DNA of 64,000 bases from Puniceicoccales bacterium (GCA_031255005.1 JAIRTH010000016.1:5859-69858), one strand, 5' to 3'. Shown: positions 5,015 to 22,966, counted from the stretch's first letter. A program made the numbers and translations. Notes: generated from the sequence alone by a model not told the origin.

Positions 5015-6727
5015 ATGGCAACTAGTAAATCGTCATCAGATACAGGTGCTGTGAACGGTATGGATGTTCGTGTACGCGAACTGATCCGCTTCGCAAAGGA
5101 ACAGGGATATCTAACTCTGCAGGATATCAGTGAATATCTGCCGGAAAGCATAGAAAATCCCGAGGATGTCGAGAACATGATGAATATTCTCGATAATCTT
5201 GAAATAGAGATCGTTGACACCAATGATGTCGAAAGGTATGTGAAGCAACGTGAGGCCGGCAACCTCGAAGATGCTCCAACGGAGGATGTGGCAGAAGATC
5301 CTGTCCGAATGTACCTTAGGCAAATGGGACAGGTTCCTCTCCTGACGAGAGATGAAGAAATCTCCATCTCCAAAAGGATAGAAAAAGCTGAACTTCAGGC
5401 CCAGGATGAATTGTTTTCTGTTCACCTGACTGCTGACTTCCAAATCAATCTGGCAGAACGACTTCTACAACGCGAAGAAAGATTTGATCGCATTGTCCTC
5501 GATAAAAAGATCGAAAGTCGAGAGGTATATTATAGAATTCTCGAGCGCTCCATACAAGATAGTAAGCTCCTACTGGAACGTATCCATGACATTTGGAACC
5601 GCTTACAGTCCGTCGAAGGTAATAGAGAAATCGAACAGAAACGATTAAAACAATTTCAGGCTCAGCTAAAAACGGTCATGAAACGCTTCTGTTTCAAAAT
5701 GAAAATTTTTGAAGATTTTCTACAAAGACTAAGGCCAGATCTGAAACAAATAGAGCAACTTGTTCATGAATCACAACGAGTTGCATCTCTCTCTACCCGA
5801 AGAAGTATTGACACCACTGACATGGCCAATCGAATAAAAAAGGCCATGAAAAAATTAGAACTGAAACATCAGGTCGATCCAGTCAGACTCTTGGAAATAG
5901 TGAAAAAATTTCGAGAATATATGCGCGAGGCTCATAAGGCCAAAACTGAGATGGTTGAGGCAAATCTGAGGCTCGTCATCAGCATAGCTAAAAAATATAC
6001 AAACCGCGGACTGACATTCTTAGATCTTATCCAAGAAGGAAATATGGGATTGATGAAGGCTGTCGAAAAATTTGAATACCGCCGTGGTTACAAATTTTCA
6101 ACCTATGCCACCTGGTGGATAAGACAGGCCATAACCCGGTCCATTGCCGATCAAGCTAGGACCATTCGAATTCCGGTCCATATGATAGAAGTCCTCAATC
6201 GAGTCATGCAGATACAACGTCAACTACAGCAAGAACTTGGTCACGAACCTTCCGCCGAAGAGGTGGCCAGCGAAATGAGCTTACCGCTGGACAGAGTCAA
6301 GGCCATAATGAAGATGGCCCAGCAACCAATTTCGTTGCAAAGCCCGGTGGGCGATAATGAAGATTCTAGTTTTGGCGATTTTATCGAGGACAAAAGCGCG
6401 GACAACCCATACGACATGACTGCTTACAGCTTGCTGCGCGAAAAGATAGATGACGTGCTGATCAGTCTAACCGAAAGAGAACGAGATGTTTTGATGTTGC
6501 GCTTCGGTCTCAAAGATGGCTATAGCAGAACACTGGAAGAAGTCGGCCAAACGTTCAATGTCACCCGCGAAAGGATTCGTCAGATCGAAGCCAAGGCGCT
6601 GAGAAAAATGCGCCACCCCACAAGAATCCGCCAATTGCATGGATTTTTCGAAGGGGATTTTGATACAGAAGGCCCTGGATTTGAGGATTTTGTGCAACAA
6701 CAGCAACAGCAGCAACAACATAATTAA
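5015..6727 (+). CDS. rpoD: primary sigma factor RpoD (sigma-70 family) with C-terminal poly-Q tail
   Basis: [66 protein letters not shown], and region 4 [21 protein letters not shown]. Confidence 0.97.
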
Positions 6728-7895
6728 TTTCAATCGAGATATATCACAACCGGCGGATGGTAAATACGGAATCAGTGGCAAGCTATTGATTTTGTATGCC
6801 ATTGCCTATTGTTTGCTGGTCCATGGCAGCGTATACCAAGATTCTCATCCTTGGCGAATTTTGGTCTATGGAATTTTTGCCGCTTCGGTTTTTTTCAAAT
6901 ACCTGAAATCACCAATTAATTGCGGCATAACGCATTACATCAGCATAGCCCTAATATTTTACGGCATCACCATTGGTTTAATAAATTTTCATAGATCATT
7001 TTTTTCTTGGTACAGTCTACTATCTGACCTCATAGCGCTGTCTGGATTTTTAATCGGAACAATGCTCTGCGCAACAAAAAGTAACATGATGATCATGAAG
7101 ATATTAACAAACTGCTTTCATTATCTATTTCTGCTGGCAATCATTGGCACGCTATGGTCTATCCATAGCACGACCTCACATCAAAGATTGGCCAATATGT
7201 CGATCATAACAGCCGTAGATTACTGCATAAGACTGTTTCCTATTGCCTTATACTACAAGCGCTTATGCCGAGACAACTCCATCAAACTCCTAGGTTCGTG
7301 GTTGTTAATCCTCGTTATCATAGCCATAATTGGCAGTCGTGGCAGCCTACTCCTATATGTGGCTTGCAGTCTATTGGTCATTTTTTCTAGCACAAACAAG
7401 ATAACTCTTTCTCTGATAACAACATCCTTATCAGCCATTGTAATATTTTCTGCATTTTATTTGGTAGATATAGACATATTTAGTCATTTAAAAAATCGCA
7501 TTACTTCCACGAAACTATGCGAAGAAAACAGATTTTACGAAATGATGAATCTGGTAAAAGATGCCAACATTGAGCTGCTATGCGGCCGAGGTCTGGGCGC
7601 TAGAAACCACAACCACAACAACTTCAAGTTTTCGGAATCATTTTGCACCATGCCTCACATCACTGCCCTAGGCTTCATGTATAAATGCGGAATTCTTGGT
7701 TTTCTATTTTTCTGGCTATTCCCTCTCATCCACGCAATCCGACTGATCTTTTCCCGCTACAAAATGGCTATAGCCTTCGCCACATCACTAATTATATTTA
7801 AACTAGGTGATTGCATCGGAGGAACTTGGGATTCAATCGGCCTATTATTTTTTTCCATTGTCTTATTTCTAAATCTTCAGTGGAAAACCTACTAA
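6639..7895 (+). CDS. polytopic membrane protein, possibly O-antigen ligase/Wzy-like
   Basis: About 10 hydrophobic segments and a GSRGSLLLY motif as seen in Wzy_C/WaaL-type proteins. The start is uncertain. The annotated ATG overlaps rpoD by 89 nt, and no other in-frame ATG precedes the first TM segment (an in-frame TTG lies at 6786). Confidence 0.45.
6695..6718 (+). repeat. CAA/CAG codon run encoding Q8 at the rpoD C-terminus
   Basis: caacaacagcaacagcagcaacaa read in the rpoD frame, followed by cat aat taa. Confidence 0.9.
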
Positions 7896-10695: not shown

Positions 10696-10776
10696 TTAAC
10701 AAGTCTCCTTTAAAACGCTCAAAAATCCGCACCACATGTAAATAATAAAAAAATGCCTTTGGTTAATAAAATATAT

Positions 10777-13700
10777 CTATATGAGATGTAAGTAGTTATG
10801 CAACGCACCCATGGTCCCGTTGGAGCCATGGTCGCGGCATTGATTTGAAAAACTTGCCACCGGAGGAGCACTGGGTTTCAATTCACAAATGGATTTTATA
10901 CCGCTTTCCCAACAACGAATATACATGGCAGAAATTTCCTCCATATCACTGCAGCCCAAATATAATCTAACCGCCAATCCCTGGTCTACCCATTGTTGAA
11001 GATTTTTATACATTTTTATCAACTTCTCGGTATCGATGGAATAAGCTGTCCTAAATTTTGCCTTGATATCCGACGGAATTTCATTTATGGCAGCCACTTC
11101 GCCATCAAAATAGCATATCTGCTCAAAAATGTCATCGGTCCAAATATTCTCTTGTTTTAAGGTCTTTACCATGGCTGGGTTAACAAACACGATCACCTCG
11201 CTACCATCATAGGATTTCTTGAATATATTTCGCGTCACCGGATAGACTCCAGGGAAACATCCCATCAATTTCGATAGGCGCTCTTCGGTGGAATAGGCTA
11301 GCAAAAAACAATTCCTCAGACCAGAACTATCCATCGACGCCCTAATGCCATCAATAATTTTCATATCTTCGACATCAAATTTACCTAACATATCATCATC
11401 CTTGGCCAAATCAAAGGGCAATCTATGGCTTCCCCAATGAGAATTTTGGAATTTCATAAATTTTTCTTTTTCCTTGGCTAACTGGCAGGACGCATCAAGA
11501 GAAAAAAGCATCATTTTTCGCGCACATAACGATGCAAACTCTATGGCCTCATCGGAATCGAATTCATAGTTCAACTTGTATAAAGCGTTCTGCAACCCAG
11601 TCATGCCCAATCCCACAGGTCTGTAGGCTCTGGTTCTATTGGCCGAATTTTCCGTGGGAAAGTAATTTGCATCTATCATAGCATCCATCGCCCGAATGCC
11701 CAAGGCCACATCTTCGCGAAGTTTTTTAAGATTCATATTTCCATCATCATCAATGTACCGAGATATCACTATCGCTCCAGAACTGCAGGCAATTGACTCG
11801 TCATCACCGGAAGGCAAAAGCACCGAATGCCCCGGACCAACGCTGTTGATACAGCCATCCATCGCCATCATAGCCGACCGATTGCATCGATCCTTAAATA
11901 ATATCATTGGATTTCCAGTTTCAAATACATTTCGAAGAAGCGAAGACCATAAATCGTTGGCTTTTACGGTGTTGCTCCAAATTTTATTTTCCTTCGCCAA
12001 GCATTCTAGCTTCTCATATTCGGTTTCAAATTCCAATCCATGGGTTTTTATAAGCGCTTTGGCATCATCGACTTTAAACAATGTCCAGCATTTCTGATCC
12101 TTCACTCTCTGCATAAACAGATCCGGAATCAATAGCGACGTGCTCAAACTACCACCATTCGAAGGTCTTGATTTTTCCCTGCCAAACCCAATGAAATCGA
12201 ACACATCCGAATGCCAAATTTCGCAGCTAACGCAACCTGATCCTACCAGCGCACCGGCCCCACTGGTCATGATCGAAAGCTGATGTTTGTGCAACTGCAT
12301 GAAGGGAATAACACCATTGGTAATGCCACGCGTCCCTTTAATTCGACTGCCCTTGCCTCTTATCGCCGTCCAGGAACCACCCAAATTACCACCCAACCTA
12401 GAAATCAGCGCACTTTCTATGACACATTTGTTCAAAATACTCTCAATGTCATCGTTAACCGAATATATATAATCTGACATCAACTGCGAATTCCTAGTAC
12501 CGGCAAAATACAACGCCTGCTCTGAAACACAAAATATTCTCTCTTTGAAAAGATTATACAACGATATGACCCTGTCATCCCGACCATCCTCTTCCTTCAA
12601 AAAAATACCCATGGCAACGCGCATCCATAAAATCTGTGGAGTCTCAAGCAACAAGCCAGCAACTGGATCTCTAAGAAGATAATTGTCCATCAATGCCATG
12701 GTTGCAACTATATCAAAATCCAGATCGGCACCAATGGAAAGGCAATCTGCCAACCTAGATAGATCATATTTCAGCATATCGCCATCCAATAGCCCCAAAT
12801 CCACAGCTCTGGGAATATATTTTATAAAATAGTCGCGATGTAATCTGCGTAAGCCATTGATATCCTTATCTAATGGATTCCAGCCCAAGACATGCTGATA
12901 CAAATAGGACAGGGACAATCTGGATGCAAATATGGAAAAATTCGGATCCTTCCTTACCAATTTACAAGCGTTGGTCAAAATATGTTTTTCCAACTCTGCC
13001 TCGGATAATTCGCCGGGTATATTATCCCGGAGAGCCGTCATTATTTCCTCAAATCCGATCGCAAAATCCAATCCAATCCTAGCAAAGCTAATCCTCTCTC
13101 GCAGATCACTGCCATCCCAAAAGGAAACCGATCCATCGGCCATTTTTATCAAAATCATCGCCCTTTGCAATGCATCTTGACTGGCAACGTTTATGGTTTC
13201 TTTACTGTTATCATTGCGCAACTTAGCTCTTTCCGCCCGGTATAAAATATAGGCCTCGGCAATCTTAAAGTTGCCACTCTTCATCAATTCCTCTTGGACC
13301 AAATCCTGAACCTGTTCGATGTGAATAAATTTTACACCGGAAGAAACTACTCGTTCGGTAACATTTTCTGATATAAGTTTAGATGGCACCGGATCCGAAC
13401 GCTGAGACAGAAATGCTCTACGCACTGCCTGTTCCACCTTCGCCCTGCTCCAAGGAACAATCTTACCATTTCGCCTTATAAGTTTTACTTCAACAGCGGC
13501 AGAACCGCCATCGGATGCCCTGTCATTGGCATAGGCACACTTCATCAAAAAACATCTGGCGATATCATGTAAAGAATTTCGCACCAACACATCGGAAATG
13601 ACATCTGTAATCTCATGGCCATCAGAAACTTCAGCACATACCTGGCGCACCACATCCACCAACATCGATTTATTTTTTTCGGAAAAAATTTCATCATCAC

Positions 13701-13890
13701 TTGTGGCCAACATCAAATCGGTTATCGCAGTGCCAATCATGGTGGCCACATTTCCGGCCAACTCCTGATCAACACATAAACCATCGCCACGTACCACCGA
13801 TGCCCAATCGAAATTCGGCTTCCTGTCACCAGGCATAGCAACAAAATTCTTTATAGCCAAATCCTCACACAATCTATCTCTAACAACCAT
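10777..13890 (-). CDS. ribonucleotide reductase large-subunit homolog (1037 aa) lacking the canonical active-site Cys/Asn/Glu; possibly non-catalytic
   Basis: ATP-cone-like segment VEVKLIRRNGKIVPWSRAKVEQAVRRAF, then GGNLGGSWTAIRGKGSRIKG, VIPFM, EIWHSDVFDF and YRPVGLGMTGL. The finger-loop position reads INSVGPGHSVLLP instead of SNLCxE / TNPCGEQ. Confidence 0.75.
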   Translation of the reverse strand: MVVRDRLCEDLAIKNFVAMPGDRKPNFDWASVVRGDGLCVDQELAGNVATMIGTAITDLMLATSDDEIFSEKNKSMLVDVVRQVCAEVSDGHEITDVISDVLVRNSLHDIARCFLMKCAYANDRASDGGSAAVEVKLIRRNGKIVPWSRAKVEQAVRRAFLSQRSDPVPSKLISENVTERVVSSGVKFIHIEQVQDLVQEELMKSGNFKIAEAYILYRAERAKLRNDNSKETINVASQDALQRAMILIKMADGSVSFWDGSDLRERISFARIGLDFAIGFEEIMTALRDNIPGELSEAELEKHILTNACKLVRKDPNFSIFASRLSLSYLYQHVLGWNPLDKDINGLRRLHRDYFIKYIPRAVDLGLLDGDMLKYDLSRLADCLSIGADLDFDIVATMALMDNYLLRDPVAGLLLETPQILWMRVAMGIFLKEEDGRDDRVISLYNLFKERIFCVSEQALYFAGTRNSQLMSDYIYSVNDDIESILNKCVIESALISRLGGNLGGSWTAIRGKGSRIKGTRGITNGVIPFMQLHKHQLSIMTSGAGALVGSGCVSCEIWHSDVFDFIGFGREKSRPSNGGSLSTSLLIPDLFMQRVKDQKCWTLFKVDDAKALIKTHGLEFETEYEKLECLAKENKIWSNTVKANDLWSSLLRNVFETGNPMILFKDRCNRSAMMAMDGCINSVGPGHSVLLPSGDDESIACSSGAIVISRYIDDDGNMNLKKLREDVALGIRAMDAMIDANYFPTENSANRTRAYRPVGLGMTGLQNALYKLNYEFDSDEAIEFASLCARKMMLFSLDASCQLAKEKEKFMKFQNSHWGSHRLPFDLAKDDDMLGKFDVEDMKIIDGIRASMDSSGLRNCFLLAYSTEERLSKLMGCFPGVYPVTRNIFKKSYDGSEVIVFVNPAMVKTLKQENIWTDDIFEQICYFDGEVAAINEIPSDIKAKFRTAYSIDTEKLIKMYKNLQQWVDQGLAVRLYLGCSDMEEISAMYIRCWESGIKSICELKPSAPPVASFSNQCRDHGSNGTMGALHNYLHLI

Positions 13891-14301: not shown

Positions 14302-14613
14302 ATGAAAGATGGGATCTTATTAATTTGGTTAGGGGCCATGCTTGGAATTGGACAGCTTAATGCTGCACATAATGCAAACAATTATGGCCATGAATATGCA
14401 TTGGAAAATATAACTGATGAAGACGAATTCGGCACCGATAAAAACGTTGCTGATAACATTGCTAAATTGGTTGAAACAGAAGTCAAAAAGCAGGAACTTC
14501 TTAAAGAACTAGATGAAAATGTGAAAAATGCCGAAGATATCGTAGATGAAATCGACGAAATAGAAATTGATCAACAAGAAATCAAAGATGATATCAATGA
14601 TAGCATTCTTTAA
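14302..14613 (+). CDS. small secreted acidic protein (103 aa), orphan
   Basis: Signal-like leader ILLIWLGAMLGIGQLNAA followed by a D/E-rich helical sequence (DEIDEIEIDQQEIKDDIND). Confidence 0.6.
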   Translation: MKDGILLIWLGAMLGIGQLNAAHNANNYGHEYALENITDEDEFGTDKNVADNIAKLVETEVKKQELLKELDENVKNAEDIVDEIDEIEIDQQEIKDDINDSIL

Positions 14614-14812
14614 TAAACAGAAAATATTCATTGATTATTGATTCTCACAATAGAAATTTATAATAGAGCAGTTTTTCCATAAAATTGAAAGTACAAATGC
14701 GCCGAAATTACTATAAATTTAGGTGCATTTCTTGTTAGAATTTGCTATAAATATGGAAATAAATAAAAAACCTAATTGATAAACCTGATATATTAAATAG
14801 GACTGCGTCGGA

Positions 14813-15484
14813 ATGAAAATTCATAATCCATTTTACAAAAAATTGATATGTATTTTATGGTTAATACTGGCCTATTCCTTTATGGGTACCTTCTCAGCCC
14901 TAGCACTTAAAAATGGGCCCAATGAAAAGCAACTTGCAGCCATCTATGTACTTGCGAATAATGCAATCATTGAGAATAATTGCGAGGAGATAGACATTCA
15001 ACAACCTAGCAGAGAAGAAGTTAATCATGCTACCAAAGTACTCCGCCCTTATCTACCCCAGGAATGTGTCTATGAAATCGTGACCAATCTTAATGATCCA
15101 TTGCCGGATGATGTCGTACGCTTAGCCGTCGATGTTTTTAAAGAAAATTTAATAAAAAGAAGAATTTATTGTCGTGAATGGAAAAAAAAATATATAGCAA
15201 GCCTTACGCCAGAACAACTTGAATATAGTAAACATATACACTGTGAAGCGGTCAAAAAATCCATGAAAAAGAAACTGGCAAACTTTACACAAGAAGAACT
15301 TGAAAAGTATAAACGTAAACGCCATGAATCGGCCAAGAAAGCCATAAAAAAGAGACTGGCAAATTTTACGCCAGAACAACTTGAAGAATATAAGCGCAAA
15401 CGTCGTGAATCACGCAAAAAATGTGAGGCAAAGAAACGAGCAGAATACATTGCAAAAAACTTCAGGCCAAAGTTTAATGAATAA
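14813..15484 (+). CDS. secreted orphan protein, paralog A (223 aa), three 27-aa basic repeats at C-terminus
   Basis: Leader KKLICILWLILAYSFMGTFSALA. Clear homology to the ORF at 15650. C-terminal repeats of the type LANFTPEQLEEYKRKRRESRKK. Confidence 0.75.
   Translation: MKIHNPFYKKLICILWLILAYSFMGTFSALALKNGPNEKQLAAIYVLANNAIIENNCEEIDIQQPSREEVNHATKVLRPYLPQECVYEIVTNLNDPLPDDVVRLAVDVFKENLIKRRIYCREWKKKYIASLTPEQLEYSKHIHCEAVKKSMKKKLANFTQEELEKYKRKRHESAKKAIKKRLANFTPEQLEEYKRKRRESRKKCEAKKRAEYIAKNFRPKFNE
15194..15436 (+). repeat. 3 x 81-bp in-frame tandem repeat (27-aa units) inside paralog A
   Basis: Units start at 15194, 15275 and 15356. They encode IASLTPEQLEYSKHIHCEAVKKSMKKK, LANFTQEELEKYKRKRHESAKKAIKKR and LANFTPEQLEEYKRKRRESRKKCEAKK. 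Paralog B has one unit. Confidence 0.85.
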
Positions 15485-15649
15485 AATGAAATCTCAAGAA
15501 ATTTAAACCTCAAAAAACTCGAATCTGAATATTCAAAGTTCAGGCTCGATGATTATGAAATATTATAAGTAATACTGACAACAATGTTATCAAATTTTGG
15601 AAGAAACACTCCTTGACAAATCTGGTATATCAAACAGGACTACATCGGA

Positions 15650-16153
15650 ATGAAAATCTATAATCCATTTGCCAAAAGGTTGGTTTGCACTTTATGGCTA
15701 ATGTTAATCTATTGCGCCATGAGCACTTTCTCTTCCTTAGCACTTAAAAATGGGCCCAATGAAAAGGAGCTTGCAGCCATCTATGTACTTGTGAGTAATG
15801 CAATTATTAAAAATAATTCTATGAGGATAGACATTCTACAGCCTGACAAAGCAAAGATTAACAATGCTACTAAAGCACTTCACCCTTACCTAAGCAAGAA
15901 GCGTATCAATGAAATCGTGATCAACCTTGGTAATCCATCGATGGATAATGCCGTGAACCAGACTATCAACGTTTTCAAAGAAAGTTTAATAAAAAAAAGA
16001 AACTATCGTCGTGAAATGTTGTATAACTTTAAGTCAAGCCTTACGCCAGAAGAACTTGAAGATCGCAAACGTAAGCATTGTGAAGCATCCAAGAAATACA
16101 TGGCAAAAAAACGAGCAGAACGCACTGCCAAAAAACTTCAGGTCGAAGTTTAA
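15650..16153 (+). CDS. secreted orphan protein, paralog B (167 aa)
   Basis: MKIYNPFAKRLVCTLWLMLIYCAMSTFSSLALKNGPNEKELAAIYVL aligns residue-for-residue with paralog A. It has a single basic repeat, SLTPEELEDRKRKHCEASKKYMAKKRAE. Confidence 0.75.
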   Translation: MKIYNPFAKRLVCTLWLMLIYCAMSTFSSLALKNGPNEKELAAIYVLVSNAIIKNNSMRIDILQPDKAKINNATKALHPYLSKKRINEIVINLGNPSMDNAVNQTINVFKESLIKKRNYRREMLYNFKSSLTPEELEDRKRKHCEASKKYMAKKRAERTAKKLQVEV

Positions 16154-18653: not shown

Positions 18654-19247
18654 CTAGAAAATACGCTGCCTCGACACGACTTTCATTATCGCCTTTTGTG
18701 CATCCTGCACTTCTTTCACCAATTTGACAAGATCATTAGGTCTTTCATTAATATGCTGAAATAAGCTAGTCAAATAATCGCATGTAAATTTATCACAGCT
18801 CTTTTCATTCATTAATCTATTAGAATAACATACACAAGCTATACAAAACGTCTTCAAAGTCTTTAACTCAATGCGTTTAGAAATATCATTGGCTTGAGAT
18901 ATCATCAATTTGTTTATTGTAATATTTTTTTTCAGATAATTAATCAGCATCATTAACTTATTCATCGGAATAGCTTTTAACACTTCTACTACGAAATTGT
19001 ATACGACTTCAGATCGATTTTTTATACAAGAATGCCCGTCATCACTTATATAAACACCATGAGGGATCGAACAACATCTGCAAATAAGCTCACCTAATTC
19101 AGATATTTTACCATCTTCTGCTAAACATTCGGCTTCTGCAACAGTATAGCCACTCACAGCTATCTTACCAGCATTTGCCAATGATATGCCGAAAAACAAT
19201 GTCACACTCAGCGACAGCAACAATAATTTAGATTTATTAATTTTCAC
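18654..19247 (-). CDS. secreted Cys-rich orphan protein (197 aa)
   Basis: GTG start. Leader KLLLLSLSVTLFFGISLANA. 11 Cys including CRCC and CIACVC clusters. No recognised motif. Confidence 0.6.
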   Translation of the reverse strand: MKINKSKLLLLSLSVTLFFGISLANAGKIAVSGYTVAEAECLAEDGKISELGELICRCCSIPHGVYISDDGHSCIKNRSEVVYNFVVEVLKAIPMNKLMMLINYLKKNITINKLMISQANDISKRIELKTLKTFCIACVCYSNRLMNEKSCDKFTCDYLTSLFQHINERPNDLVKLVKEVQDAQKAIMKVVSRQRIF

Positions 19248-19383
19248 AACTCAATGATATTCGCACACCAAAATTCGAATGTCAAGCGAAAAATAAAATA
19301 AATTTCATAGACCAACCACATTCAAGGGAAGCTAAACTTTCCTTGACAACGGCCAGGCAGTGCATTGCATATGGTACACATTT

Positions 19384-19458
19384 GCCAGAGTAGCTCAGGG
19401 GTAGAGCAGAGGACTCATAAGCCTTTGGCCGGCGGTTCAAATCCGCCCTCTGGCACCA
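19384..19458 (+). tRNA. tRNA-Met (CAU), elongator type
   Basis: GCCAGAG acceptor pairing with CTCTGGC, then A-CCA. D arm GCTC/GAGC, anticodon loop CTCATAA, T arm GGCGG-TTCAAAT-CCGCC. A paired G1:C72 argues against an initiator. A4:T69/G5:C68 differ from the Ile2-like tRNA. Confidence 0.9.
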
Positions 19459-19534
19459 TAGTCGTAATAAAATATCAAAAATTTCTAATTTTTTTATTGA
19501 CATCTTAATTTTTTGATGAAAGGATAAGTTCATT

Positions 19535-21058
19535 ATGAAAATAAAATATATAGTAATGTTATTGTCGTTCATGTTGATTAATGAAGCTGCACTTACCAAT
19601 ATGACTAGTGCCGCTAATATCAAAAGAAGTAGAAATACTAGAAGAGGTAAGAGAGGTAAGATTAATGCGAGAAAAGGTAGAACCAGTAAAAGGAAAACCA
19701 ATCGCGGTAATAATAGAAATAATAACAATAAATACAAAAATAAAGTCAGTAGATACAAAAGCAAAATCAGTAAATACAAAAATAAAGCTCGTAGATATAA
19801 AGATATGCTTAATGAAGACGAAGATATGTCATATGTTTCATATATCCCAAGCGATAATGCATTTAGCACATTTCCGTATTTTCCACCTACACCTATAGTT
19901 CCATCGACACCTGCAATTCCACCGGTATTAACAAGTTCATATACGCCTACGACTTCAATAAGTTTACCTACACCTGATAATCATAAGACTTCAATTAAAA
20001 AGAAGGCAAATCAGATGGAAAAAGACATAATCAGCCAAAGAGAAATTGTTCATAACGTAGTTGATGCAACTGTTATGGTATTTAATATCATTCCGAAGTA
20101 TTCAAAAATAATCTTTAGTGAATTAATGGTACATGTTTGCAAAATTATCCTTGAAGAACATAAAAATGATTCACATGAAGCATTAAAACAAAATATGCGC
20201 AATTATATTAACAAAATTAAGATTCTTGGTGATGAATTTATTATGACTTCATTAGACTTTCTTAAAAATGAAAACGTAGGAATTCTGAATTGCTTTATAA
20301 CAATGAAAGACAAACTCGAGACATCAAAAAAGAAAATAGATCATGATGATATGATTGATGGAGAATATAATTATGATAATGCGATACTAGGTATTACGAT
20401 AAGACATACCGACATTGATATTAAAACCGAATTGAGAAAAATTCAAACTAGTAAAGAGGAGATGATCAATAAGATAATAGATAATATAAATCAAATCATT
20501 GGTAGCGCAATCTCACATGATTACGACAGTAACAGCATGAATACATTGAGGAAGGCTCTTAATGATACTGAAACTTATACTACATTATATGGCACTCCAG
20601 AAGAAATAAAAAGTCACATATTTAAAGGAATAACTAATAGTTATAATAATGCCAATAGAAAGACAATGAAAGGTAGGATTAAACTGGAAATTGAAGAAAG
20701 TAAGATAAATTCAAGTATCAAAAAAATATTTACACAATACTCTAGCAATTCCCACGATGAAGACGTGCATGAAATATTAAAAAATGAAATGAATAGAATT
20801 GTCCCTGCATATAAGCAAGTTATTAATAATTTTACCCAGGGCATGGACAAAATAATGAAGGAAAGTAAAACTAAAGCTAAATATTTAGATCTTCTTGCCA
20901 TTAAAAATAATCATACAAAACAAAAACCAAATCTTCCTCTAAAAAACGAAATAAATCCGATTGCAATTGAAGATCATTCTTTAGATTCCGAAAAATCAAA
21001 TGGACAAAAGATAATAGTCGAAGAGCCTAACGAAAACCCATATCATATTTCCTTATAA
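19535..21058 (+). CDS. secreted orphan protein (507 aa): signal leader, about 70-aa polybasic tract, Pro-rich linker, helical domain
   Basis: Leader IVMLLSFMLINEAALT, then RRGKRGKINARKGRTSKRKTNRGNNRNNNNKYKNKVSRYKSKISKYKNKARRYK, then PYFPPTPIVPSTPAIPPVL. Very AT-rich by eye. Confidence 0.7.
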   Translation: MKIKYIVMLLSFMLINEAALTNMTSAANIKRSRNTRRGKRGKINARKGRTSKRKTNRGNNRNNNNKYKNKVSRYKSKISKYKNKARRYKDMLNEDEDMSYVSYIPSDNAFSTFPYFPPTPIVPSTPAIPPVLTSSYTPTTSISLPTPDNHKTSIKKKANQMEKDIISQREIVHNVVDATVMVFNIIPKYSKIIFSELMVHVCKIILEEHKNDSHEALKQNMRNYINKIKILGDEFIMTSLDFLKNENVGILNCFITMKDKLETSKKKIDHDDMIDGEYNYDNAILGITIRHTDIDIKTELRKIQTSKEEMINKIIDNINQIIGSAISHDYDSNSMNTLRKALNDTETYTTLYGTPEEIKSHIFKGITNSYNNANRKTMKGRIKLEIEESKINSSIKKIFTQYSSNSHDEDVHEILKNEMNRIVPAYKQVINNFTQGMDKIMKESKTKAKYLDLLAIKNNHTKQKPNLPLKNEINPIAIEDHSLDSEKSNGQKIIVEEPNENPYHISL

Positions 21059-21118
21059 TAGTTAAACGATAGGGTTTAGGCCTAGTAAATACCTCCGATA
21101 GTTTTATCAGAAACATCT

Positions 21119-21155
21119 AAAGCACAACGATTTCATGTCGTTGTGCTTTTAATTT
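21119..21155 (+). terminator. rho-independent terminator
   Basis: Perfect 12-bp stem aaagcacaacga / tcgttgtgcttt with 7-nt loop tttcatg, running into a T/A-rich tail. Lies 60 nt after the stop at 21058. Confidence 0.75.
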
Positions 21156-21196
21156 GAAAACTGATCTAAATGTAATTATAATTATCATCACTGATA

Positions 21197-22966
21197 ATGA
21201 AAAGACATAGATTATTTTGTGTACTATTGTGGTTTTTCTTTGCGATAATTAACATAATGCCAATTAAAATTAGCGCAAAACATCGAGGATCAAACACTTT
21301 TTGGTATAAAAAATCACAAAAAAAACGCCTTATAAATACAAAAACCGTAAAATTTAAGAAAAAACATTTAGCCACTATTCGCCGGAATAAAAAAACAAAA
21401 AAAACCAGAGAAAATATACATAAATTCTGGCGAAAAAGCCGTACCAAGCGACGTAATTTCTTAGATCAAAACTCCTATATATACCTCTACCCTATTCCAG
21501 CATATTACTCGCAACCCTCTATACCTCATATCTATACGCAACAAAACGAAACTTCAAATATCATAAACTCTCCTCATGTCGATACAGAATCTGTTGCTAG
21601 ACAAGCCCCATCGCATCAAAATCATATCCGTTATACCTATCAAAACCATGATGATTTCCATGGCAATGATAGCTTTACGCAACTGCCAGACGCTCAATAT
21701 CTTATTGATATAATGAAAGCTACATCACTAAGCCTATCATCTATCAATGATCCCTTCGCTATGATCGATGTGCTGAAAGAAAATATCGTTCAATTCGAAA
21801 ATTATTTCAATCAACTATATCACGAAAAAAAATTCCACACATTACCAGAAGATGGCAAAATAGTTTTAGCAGAACTAGCCAAAGTTAAAGAAAAATTAAT
21901 AGATATCGAGGCCTCTACCACCAAAGGTGTAAAAATAAAAAAAATCCTAAAAAATAAACCCTATAGCAACCTGATTTCTAATTTCAGCCAAAATAATTCC
22001 TTTGATATACTGGAAAATGAAATAATAAGCTCTTTCTACACTCTAGATCAGGATATTTTGCAAAGCATCATCAACAATACCAATGCTTTAATTAATGATA
22101 ATAGTATTTTTTATTTTCATCAATCCACCTCCATAGATGGCCTTCTCCATAACAATTTTTTCAAAAAAATATCCGAAGGCAAAGGAGGTCAAAATCCTAA
22201 TAATTTGGCCATGATGTCTCATCTAAGCCATTTCCTTTCCAATGCAACCAATGATATAAAGGAAAAATTACTAAAAAAAATCGCCGAATATATGAATCAT
22301 TGTATAGATCAAGCCGTTACTGGACTGCAACTTACAGGTTGTTTAGCCATAGCTTATGCCAGCACCGAAAAAGATAATAATTCCATAGAAAAAAATATCA
22401 TAGCCGTGCTGGTGGACATATACAAAAAGGAAATGCTAAATCGAATCCTTGTCAAAAGAGGCGCTGAAGAGCTAGAGGGCCTGGCCTATTTGACTGAATA
22501 CCTCGGCCATATTGTATTTCCATCCATTACAATGCCGCCATTCTCATTCACAGAATTTGGCATAGCATATATAGAAAATGAATGTGACCCTATAAAAAAT
22601 CTTGACAAAATTCTAAATAAAATAGCCGATAGCGAGGCCCTGGTGAAATTTATTCACAACGGAATTTACGATGGTGTGCCGATCGGGGAAATGCTATTCG
22701 AGGAAATAATAAAAAATGATACAAAATATCGGGAGCTAAAAAAAATCTGCGAAGGAACAGACTTCATCATTGAACCACCTAAAGATTCCGAGGGCAATTA
22801 TACAAATTTCATCAGCGATGATGCCAAAATTTATTGGATGATAACCAATGAAAATGAAGCAGATAAGTTTCAGCAAACTATATTGGAATCAAGACAAAAT
22901 ATCCTCTACAATTATAAAAAAGAGAAGACCGAGGAATTACTCAAGAAATACGGATATTTATATTAG
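21197..22966 (+). CDS. secreted orphan protein (589 aa): signal leader, polybasic tract, Tyr/Pro-rich linker, C-terminal domain with CxD motif
   Basis: Leader LFCVLLWFFFAIINIMPIKISA, then KKSQKKRLINTKTVKFKKKHLATIRRNKKTKKTRENIHKFWRKSRTKRRNF, then YIYLYPIPAYYSQPSIPHIY. HCIDQ is at residue 369. Confidence 0.7.
   Translation: MKRHRLFCVLLWFFFAIINIMPIKISAKHRGSNTFWYKKSQKKRLINTKTVKFKKKHLATIRRNKKTKKTRENIHKFWRKSRTKRRNFLDQNSYIYLYPIPAYYSQPSIPHIYTQQNETSNIINSPHVDTESVARQAPSHQNHIRYTYQNHDDFHGNDSFTQLPDAQYLIDIMKATSLSLSSINDPFAMIDVLKENIVQFENYFNQLYHEKKFHTLPEDGKIVLAELAKVKEKLIDIEASTTKGVKIKKILKNKPYSNLISNFSQNNSFDILENEIISSFYTLDQDILQSIINNTNALINDNSIFYFHQSTSIDGLLHNNFFKKISEGKGGQNPNNLAMMSHLSHFLSNATNDIKEKLLKKIAEYMNHCIDQAVTGLQLTGCLAIAYASTEKDNNSIEKNIIAVLVDIYKKEMLNRILVKRGAEELEGLAYLTEYLGHIVFPSITMPPFSFTEFGIAYIENECDPIKNLDKILNKIADSEALVKFIHNGIYDGVPIGEMLFEEIIKNDTKYRELKKICEGTDFIIEPPKDSEGNYTNFISDDAKIYWMITNENEADKFQQTILESRQNILYNYKKEKTEELLKKYGYLY

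Follow-up and report, generated by a model that had tools for sequence, protein, structure and literature searches.

What does a ribonucleotide reductase (RNR) large subunit do once the residues for its radical chemistry are gone? This question is raised by a gene in a 64,000-nucleotide (nt) stretch of a Puniceicoccales bacterium assembly (GCA_031255005.1, JAIRTH010000016.1:5859-69858), which we call the window. On the minus strand of the window, an uninterrupted 3114-nt open reading frame (ORF) at 10777..13890 encodes a product of 1037 amino acids (aa) plus a stop codon. The product has database entry MDR0351359.1, a Puniceicoccales metagenome-assembled genome (MAG) protein named 'ribonucleoside-diphosphate reductase subunit alpha'. 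An earlier note, written from this DNA sequence, described an RNR homolog without the active-site Cys, Asn and Glu and offered two choices: a repurposed pseudo-enzyme, perhaps a nucleotide sensor using its ATP-cone, or a very aberrant RNR. We found that purifying selection has preserved the fold, ATP-cone and specificity-site residues, and that the radical and redox residues are gone except for one Cys. We refer to the protein as pseudo-NrdA; its features are collected in Table 1.

The relationship to RNR is clear. Pfam recognizes the RNR barrel and the all-alpha domain that characterize a class I alpha subunit (PF02867 and PF00317, 371 and 52 bits), and among solved structures the class I NrdA of Pseudomonas aeruginosa, which has two cones, is the closest relative (5im3; E 1e-134), followed by human and yeast R1. 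The same structure is the best fold match of an AlphaFold (AF2) model built from a 62-sequence alignment. The mean predicted local distance difference test (pLDDT) value of this model is 81.9, and its target-normalised template modelling (TM) score against R1 structures is about 0.9 (human RRM1); its least confident parts are loop 2 (residues 543-546, pLDDT <50), the finger loop and the C-terminal tail. Among the family profiles, TIGR02506 scores 391.8, above its cut-off of 341. The profile of the class II enzyme NrdJ, TIGR02504, gives 260.9, under a cut-off of 399.95, and the finger-loop triad is missing; NCBIfam NF005401, 'ribonucleotide reductase-like protein', gives 89.3 bits, and its cut-off is 906. 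The earlier note was right to call the protein an RNR large-subunit homolog, and all the motifs and coordinates it cited are correct: GGNLGGSWTAIRGKGSRIKG lies at residues 500-519, VIPFM at 527-531, TSGAGALVGSGCVSCEIWH at 542-560 and YRPVGLGMTGL at 756-766. The ATP-cone it had seen at residues 133-160 is present but larger, since Pfam extends it over residues 137-222. This cone (PF03477) scores above the gathering threshold and has the basic (K/R)R(D/N)G hairpin, here an intact L137-I-R-R-N-G142, together with the helix motifs IHIEQVQDLV and AEAYILYRA. Residues 226-390 match ATP-cone 2 of P. aeruginosa NrdA and the site of the single Escherichia coli cone; in this second region the K9/R10 equivalents were lost already in canonical relatives. 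The N-terminal region keeps the motif KPNFDW, with P20, K24, P25 and W29 conserved and a ratio of nonsynonymous to synonymous substitution rates (dN/dS, omega) of 0.14-0.23. There is no signal peptide or added domain in pseudo-NrdA.

We then mapped the catalytic residues using alignments to P. aeruginosa NrdA (5im3), human RRM1 and E. coli NrdA, plus family alignments. Because hmmalign of E. coli NrdA put C462 in the wrong place and dropped Y730/Y731, the human, P. aeruginosa and canonical verrucomicrobial alignments were used at those positions. In the finger loop, E. coli N437 corresponds to G685, the thiyl cysteine C439 to G687 and E441 to S689, so the absence of all three residues that was first read from the bare sequence is borne out by alignment to all three reference proteins. 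Of the redox-active pair C225/C462, only the C462 equivalent is kept; it is C702 (human C444), the downstream Cys that the note had aligned. A new cysteine specific to clade A (defined below), C680, lies within the finger-loop region. The substrate pocket has changed as well. E. coli T209 is replaced by E457, and P621-T624 by T-E-E-R (868-871), which gives an acidic pocket made of E457 and STEERLS with three Glu in the phosphate-binding site. At the C-terminus, the canonical CExCQ ending that carries the re-reducing Cys pair is absent and the tail has no CxxC; the Tyr-Tyr dyad is replaced too, by SICELK, again in agreement with the note. A glycyl-radical enzyme was ruled out, as the tails of the family have no RVxGY-type motif. 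With the radical Cys, the acid/base residues, one reducing Cys, the radical-transfer tyrosines, the re-reducing tail, the loop that recognizes substrate and a usable phosphate pocket lost, and with no beta subunit linked, the protein should not function as a class I or class II reductase; judged by these residues, it is very probably non-catalytic as an RNR.

Two orthologs from other metagenomes, P0002 (80% identity) and P0003 (76%), form clade A together with the window protein. The three genomes share the gene order RNR-like gene, lysS, miaB, hypothetical gene, rpoD and dnaG, and the sequences upstream of the gene can be aligned among all three. Three or four independent assemblies carry the 3.1-kb ORF undisrupted and in the same syntenic setting. 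Pairwise dN/dS for the whole gene against the two orthologs is 0.085-0.097, indistinguishable from that of its neighbours in the same genome pairs (miaB, 0.08-0.10; dnaG, 0.08-0.09), and omega per domain is 0.04-0.23 everywhere except in the C-terminal tail, where it reaches 0.4-0.6. These omega values are approximate, because dS is 1.1-1.8 and near saturation; the sign of selection is clear. P0002 comes from an independent metagenome assembly (L001/L008) and encodes the identical GPGHS loop with synonymous codon differences, so the degenerate loop is not a sequencing error. P0003 has the finger loop G-L-C-Q-S, in which the Cys is present and Asn and Glu are gone; therefore, the radical Cys was lost last. 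That loss, which affects two of the three orthologs, came without a change of selective regime. The gene is neither an artefact nor a pseudogene. The note had argued against decay from the intact ORF and had asked for dN/dS against orthologs; the value of ~0.09, which means purifying selection, and the syntenic orthologs with a shared degenerate loop both speak for its argument.

How did such a protein arise? The 120 best database hits fall cleanly into three groups. Canonical verrucomicrobial NrdA proteins carry the signature SSCYLY, NLCTE, APTATIS and TTYYLR with a C-terminal CExCQ. Clade B comprises 21 clusters, 39-42% identical to the query, in which C225 is replaced by Ser, the finger loop reads (N/G)LC(L/M/F)EH, the phosphate loop reads SPTRKI, the Tyr dyad has become x(D/E) and the C-terminal cysteines are missing. 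Clade A has conserved new cysteines, C680 and C553-x-x-C556. P0044 is a further dead form, with SSVSSEH. In a neighbour-joining tree, clade A, P0044 and clade B group together as a single clade, whose long stem arises within canonical verrucomicrobial NrdA, and the family is old, with ~40% identity between clades. At 16 canonical-invariant positions, clades A and B bear the same derived residue; these include N>R521, D>H536, H>Y756, Y>T886 and N>R975, which are polar and lie in active-site segments. Clade B resembles the window protein in lacking C225, the Tyr dyad, the C-terminal cysteines and nrdB and in keeping the ATP-cone. It differs in having Cys-x-Glu-His, the loop-2 Gln/Arg and the basic SPTRKI phosphate loop. 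Within this monophyletic Puniceicoccales family, the branch of the window protein has degenerated the furthest. The decay would have run from canonical NrdA through loss of beta-dependence and C225, then of Asn, then of Glu and loop 2, and lastly of the radical Cys. This places the protein at the endpoint of a stepwise family decay, in which P0003 keeps the Cys and at least one sister genome has the class III RNR NrdD, which is able to supply dNTPs, and so goes beyond what the earlier note had proposed.

In a profile search of 1.84 billion representative proteins, only three 50%-identity representatives belonged to the family. The same search returned at least 12 more dead NrdA-like clusters at 50% identity, in which the Tyr dyad is missing along with finger-loop Cys, Asn or Glu (P0266, P0268, P0270, P0272, P0281, P0285, P0289, P0297, P0298, P0304, P0309 and P0347; loci L088 and L089). 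Those with a named source stem from Verrucomicrobia or Puniceicoccales MAGs. Metagenome scans for additional clade A members gave nothing closer than 35% identity.

Decay has not been uniform along the protein. In clade A, 28/32 canonical-invariant residues of the cone are kept (88%) versus 126/303 in the barrel (42%; Fisher p = 4e-7), and clade B keeps 26 of 32 versus 152 of 303 (p = 7e-4). Pfam scores follow the same course: from canonical proteins through clade B to clade A, the ATP-cone scores 76.6, 75-80 and 70 bits, and the barrel 610, ~480 and 371. In 10/10 other dead NrdA-like representatives tested, the barrel has decayed and the cone still scores above threshold (43-133 bits). Residues 480-538, which hold loop 1 and the specificity site, contain the densest run of invariant positions in the alignment of the 62 sequences, family and canonical together. 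Counterparts of the specificity-site residues are D226, K243, R256 and I262 in human R1 and D232, R262, I268 and R269 in E. coli. Here D480/D481, R498, R511, I517 and K518 are kept at these positions, which contact the specificity effector in class Ia structures. The barrel as a whole is not free to drift either; its omega of 0.04-0.15 means that purifying selection acts on it no less strongly than on the cone.

For genomic context, we scanned 80 loci from species-representative genomes and the loci fetched earlier with tblastn. The nrdB gene adjoins 60/61 canonical NrdA loci and none of the 26 family loci (clade B, 0/21; clade A, 0/5, including the 64-kb window). Over the entire window, tblastn with NrdB and NrdD probes found neither gene. 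Together with Pfam scans of 40/52 ORFs of >=150 aa (those without a larger overlapping gene; for lysS, miaB, rpoD and dnaG the Pfam calls were made on syntenic orthologs), this upholds the note's statement that no nrdB/nrdF or other nrd gene is adjacent. The gene of the class III anaerobic RNR, nrdD, lies directly upstream, on the same strand, in 6/7 loci of the clade B subclade with PNLCLEH; at the seventh, L019, the sequence begins with the NrdA-like gene itself, which leaves nothing upstream to compare. A further clade B gene is on one 271-kb contig with nrdD. For clade A, P0182 is an intact NrdD with glycyl-radical and zinc motifs, assigned to the MAG of P0003 by an accession distance of 478 and a shared JGI sample. 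An NrdD ortholog for the window's genome or that of P0002 was not found, which may reflect incomplete assembly or real loss; beyond P0182, the search gave nothing above 72% identity except the partial P0185 (77%, 81% coverage), which is closer to clade B NrdD. In the neighbourhoods examined, no conserved partner gene or cofactor-binding motif was found.

In all three clade A genomes lysS follows on the same strand, in the window 81 bp 3' of pseudo-NrdA (gap 10696-10776), and then miaB. A promoter/terminator scan gave matches at chance level and no terminator-like site between pseudo-NrdA and lysS, so co-transcription with housekeeping genes is possible. NrdR boxes in the window (consensus, <=3 mismatches) numbered 4 hits versus 3.9 expected, with none upstream of pseudo-NrdA. 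Clade B loci of the GLCLEH subclade (L004, L006) have a Na+/H+ antiporter-family gene (PF07399) as their upstream neighbour, on the same strand. A gene of this kind (PF03553) also lies upstream, on the opposite strand, of the unrelated dead homolog P0268 (L089), which has a thymidine-phosphorylase gene 3 kb away and a thymidylate-kinase gene 9 kb away.

With moderate confidence, we consider the most economical reading of this pattern of conservation to be a non-catalytic pseudoenzyme that would put the allosteric nucleotide sites of an RNR alpha subunit, and the ATP-cone in particular, to use in sensing or regulation. The ancestor would have been a multi-cone class I RNR alpha subunit of the type found in P. 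aeruginosa and in the Planctomycetes-Verrucomicrobia-Chlamydiae (PVC) group. In an anaerobic, host-gut-type Puniceicoccales lineage making deoxynucleoside triphosphates (dNTPs) by class III NrdD, the beta subunit may have been lost and the alpha subunit then retained for a role without radical chemistry. ATP or dATP would bind at the cone, and a dNTP probably at the dimer-interface site. Nucleotide state would then set the oligomeric state or partner binding, much as dATP does with P. aeruginosa NrdA tetramers and NrdR. The role would be that of a nucleotide-pool sensor or regulator, with NrdD as the leading candidate for its output partner. The loss of every catalytic element but one Cys, the acidic pocket, the missing linked beta gene and an omega of ~0.09 together lend strong support to the repurposed pseudo-enzyme of the earlier note. 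Its idea of an ATP-cone sensor, still a prediction, gains quantitative support from the preferential retention of the cone (p = 4e-7, and 10/10 dead homologs).

Several points weigh against this reading. We infer nucleotide binding and sensing by pseudo-NrdA solely from conservation. Strong constraint on the barrel is unexplained by a model in which the protein is purely a carrier of the cone. Clade B keeps the Cys, the Glu and a new invariant His (CLEH), which could mean residual or new chemistry. The absence of nrdB holds for contigs and flanks rather than whole genomes, and omega is only approximate at a dS of 1.1-1.8. Finally, in the window's own clade the gene is not beside nrdD, so the link to NrdD may fail there.

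It is conceivable, though we consider it unlikely, that the family consists of neofunctionalised enzymes, in which a remodelled barrel pocket carries out a non-RNR reaction or binds another ligand and the ATP-cone is the allosteric switch. A barrel constrained as tightly as the cone (omega 0.04-0.15) would then be expected, and so would the 16 residues newly fixed in both clades, of which several are polar and fall within active-site segments; the fixed C-L-E-H and SPTRKI of clade B and the new conserved C680 and C553-x-x-C556 of clade A could be read in the same way. However, the clade B pocket residues (Cys, Glu, His and R870/K871) are replaced in clade A, so no single catalytic constellation exists family-wide. 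The finger loop and loop 2 are also the least confident parts of the model, and the lack of a cofactor-binding motif and of a conserved partner gene argues in the same direction.

A similarly small chance goes to a structural or moonlighting protein that works independently of nucleotides, as a scaffold or host-interaction factor. The precedent is viral. UL45 of human cytomegalovirus (HCMV), M45 of murine cytomegalovirus (MCMV) and U28 of human herpesvirus 6B (HHV-6B) are full-length R1 homologs that have lost catalytic residues and are conserved and functional, inactive R1 being used against host signalling (PMC5469499, PMC11772975). Like pseudo-NrdA, these betaherpesvirus proteins have no small-subunit partner (PMC5469499, PMC11772975). 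Unlike it, they are viral and hit host innate-immunity proteins via added N-terminal motifs, and the abstracts describe no ATP-cone role (PMC5469499, PMC11772975). The resemblance would be a functional analogy of independent origin, as the nearest relatives found for pseudo-NrdA are all verrucomicrobial NrdA. The organisms do look host-associated, with low-GC regions and many lineage-specific small proteins. On the other hand, pseudo-NrdA has no signal peptide or added domain, preferential retention of the cone both here and in 10/10 dead homologs would be unexpected if nucleotide binding were irrelevant, and the adjacency of nrdD in one subclade points to dNTP metabolism.

Could the protein still be an active, very aberrant RNR that uses another Cys, such as C680 or C702, and an unidentified radical source? 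All three clade A proteins have a conserved C680, which precedes the canonical position by 7 residues; C702 is retained, P0003 still has the canonical Cys, and no NrdD was found that would account for the dNTPs of the window's genome. Yet such an enzyme would have to work without the Asn, the Glu, the C225 partner, the Tyr dyad, the C-terminal reductant cysteines and nrdB. With the loop-2 Gln/Arg gone and the phosphate pocket occupied by three Glu, a nucleoside diphosphate would not be expected to bind. The canonical Cys is lost in two of three orthologs with selection unchanged. We therefore regard residual RNR activity as very improbable, and of the two choices in the earlier note the pseudo-enzyme is favoured; the aberrant RNR is disfavoured by the missing catalytic elements and nrdB. 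The many lost catalytic residues and the fast C-terminal tail (omega 0.4-0.6) would suit a decaying pseudogene, or an assembly or sequencing artefact, but the chance of either is negligible given an ORF intact in three or four assemblies, an omega of ~0.09 at dS >1, the same degenerate loop encoded with synonymous differences and an old family (~40% identity between clades).

The sensor or regulator that we prefer can be compared with two known bacterial systems. P. aeruginosa NrdA (5im3; the Chlamydia/Verrucomicrobia type, NF005544 / NF009029) has the same domain order as pseudo-NrdA: N-terminal region, functional-type ATP-cone, degenerate second cone, all-alpha domain and barrel. The cone hairpin and helix motifs of pseudo-NrdA resemble those of P. 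aeruginosa ATP-cone 1, which in the work on 5im3 reportedly binds dATP and drives tetramerisation. Unlike P. aeruginosa NrdA, pseudo-NrdA has no catalytic, redox, loop-2 or phosphate-loop residues and no nrdB neighbour, and it scores far under the NCBIfam equivalog cut-offs (565 versus 965 and 524 versus 1350). The second system is NrdR, which senses ATP/dATP through nucleotide-dependent oligomerisation (PMC9110341). Pseudo-NrdA is like NrdR in having an ATP-cone without linked catalysis; it differs in having no zinc-ribbon or DNA-binding domain, and its cone is still on a complete dead RNR body.

The NrdD proteins of these bacteria have a peculiarity of their own. In NrdD of the Puniceicoccales type, the ATP-cone hairpin (K/R)R(D/N)G is lost in 92/92 sequences (P0122-P0216; L005 7695-9845, L007 9564-11684), and the cones are below the Pfam threshold or undetected. 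These proteins retain an intact glycyl-radical motif, SR(V/I)VGYLRP, and intact zinc cysteines. The next-closest NrdD proteins, from Opitutales and Opitutaceae, have the hairpin in 43/43 cases. Loss of the NrdD hairpin coincides with the lineage that keeps a dead NrdA with a full cone. Because of this coincidence and the nrdD adjacency in one subclade, we can speculate that pseudo-NrdA is a trans-acting allosteric subunit that gives ATP/dATP control to class III NrdD. We put this forward as a long shot, and the case is weaker for the window's own clade. If it is true, an anaerobic RNR would owe its dATP/ATP feedback to the fossil subunit of an aerobic one.

According to Pfam scans, the remainder of the window holds housekeeping genes only, and a few other features are worth recording. 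Three small lineage-specific ORFs lie in an AT-rich segment (GC content 0.33) at 14302-16153 (+). Two of them, 14813-15484 and 15650-16153, are paralogous, with near-identical hydrophobic N-termini, MKI(H/Y)NPF..L.C.LWL..Y; the former has internal repeats ANFT.E.LE.YKRKR.ES.KK. Neither has a Pfam match, and they may be secreted or host-interaction proteins. The region 18654-22966 has the lowest GC content in the window (0.30-0.36) and includes ORFs 19535-21058 (507 aa) and 21197-22966 (589 aa), neither of them matched by Pfam; the region could be an island that was acquired or is specific to the lineage. GC skew is negative on the plus strand over almost the entire window (cumulative -4.15), as would fit a window that lies in one replichore and contains neither origin nor terminus. 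At 6639-7895 (+), the longest ORF of a Wzy_C-like membrane protein shares 89 nt with the 3' end of rpoD (5015-6727); its true start is probably downstream, because orthologs are called at 394 aa. The MAG isolate codes (e.g. Gsp477_bin142) are presumably those of a termite-gut MAG batch.

Table 1. Features of the pseudo-NrdA gene, with positions counted from the first letter of the window
Feature	Residues	Position	Strand	Evidence or remark
Probable NrdA-like pseudo-reductase, entire ORF		10777..13890	-	ORF call, Pfam architecture, dN/dS ~0.09 vs two orthologs
N-terminal helical region	1-130	13501..13890	-	predicted helical; common to PVC-type NrdA
ATP-cone	137-222	13225..13482	-	Pfam 70.1 bits, cut-off 25.8; omega 0.06-0.08
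Second, degenerate cone-like region and linker	226-390	12721..13215	-	alignments to solved NrdA structures and E. coli NrdA
Ribonuc_red_lgN all-alpha domain	391-467	12490..12720	-	Pfam 51.9 bits
Degenerate ten-stranded alpha/beta barrel	472-1001	10888..12477	-	Pfam 371 bits
D473 replacing redox Cys (E. coli C225 / human C218)	473	12472..12474	-	alignments
Loop 1 / specificity-site region	480-538	12277..12453	-	alignments; D480/D481, R498, R511, I517, K518 kept
Replaced loop 2 (MTSGAGALVGSG)		12235..12270	-	Q294 -> S543, R298 -> L548 (E. coli numbering)
Finger-loop region, DGCINSVGPGHSVLLPSGDDESIACSSG	678-705	11776..11859	-	structure-relative and family alignments
Former diphosphate-binding loop	867-873	11272..11292	-	APTATIS -> STEERLS
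C1002-E1003 at Tyr-Tyr radical-transfer dyad position (Y730/Y731)	1002-1003	10882..10887	-	canonical TTYYLR -> SICELK
C-terminal tail without Cys pair	1006-1037	10780..10875	-	omega 0.4-0.6 (relaxed constraint); pLDDT ~35

A literature search gave no description of a bacterial catalytically dead RNR alpha subunit, nor of these MAG proteins. Dead R1 homologs and the ATP-cone as a sensor are already known; a bacterial family of this kind, its graded decay and its association with a class III RNR appear to be new. The name 'ribonucleoside-diphosphate reductase subunit alpha', given by NCBI/JGI to this protein and ~35 related clusters, follows from their passing TIGR02506, and metabolic reconstructions of such MAGs would wrongly infer an aerobic class I RNR. 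The graded losses under purifying selection amount to a natural experiment: they offer a view of what the body of an RNR alpha subunit and its ATP-cone can do once chemistry is gone. If the link to NrdD is true, it would be a new mode of regulating dNTP supply in anaerobes.

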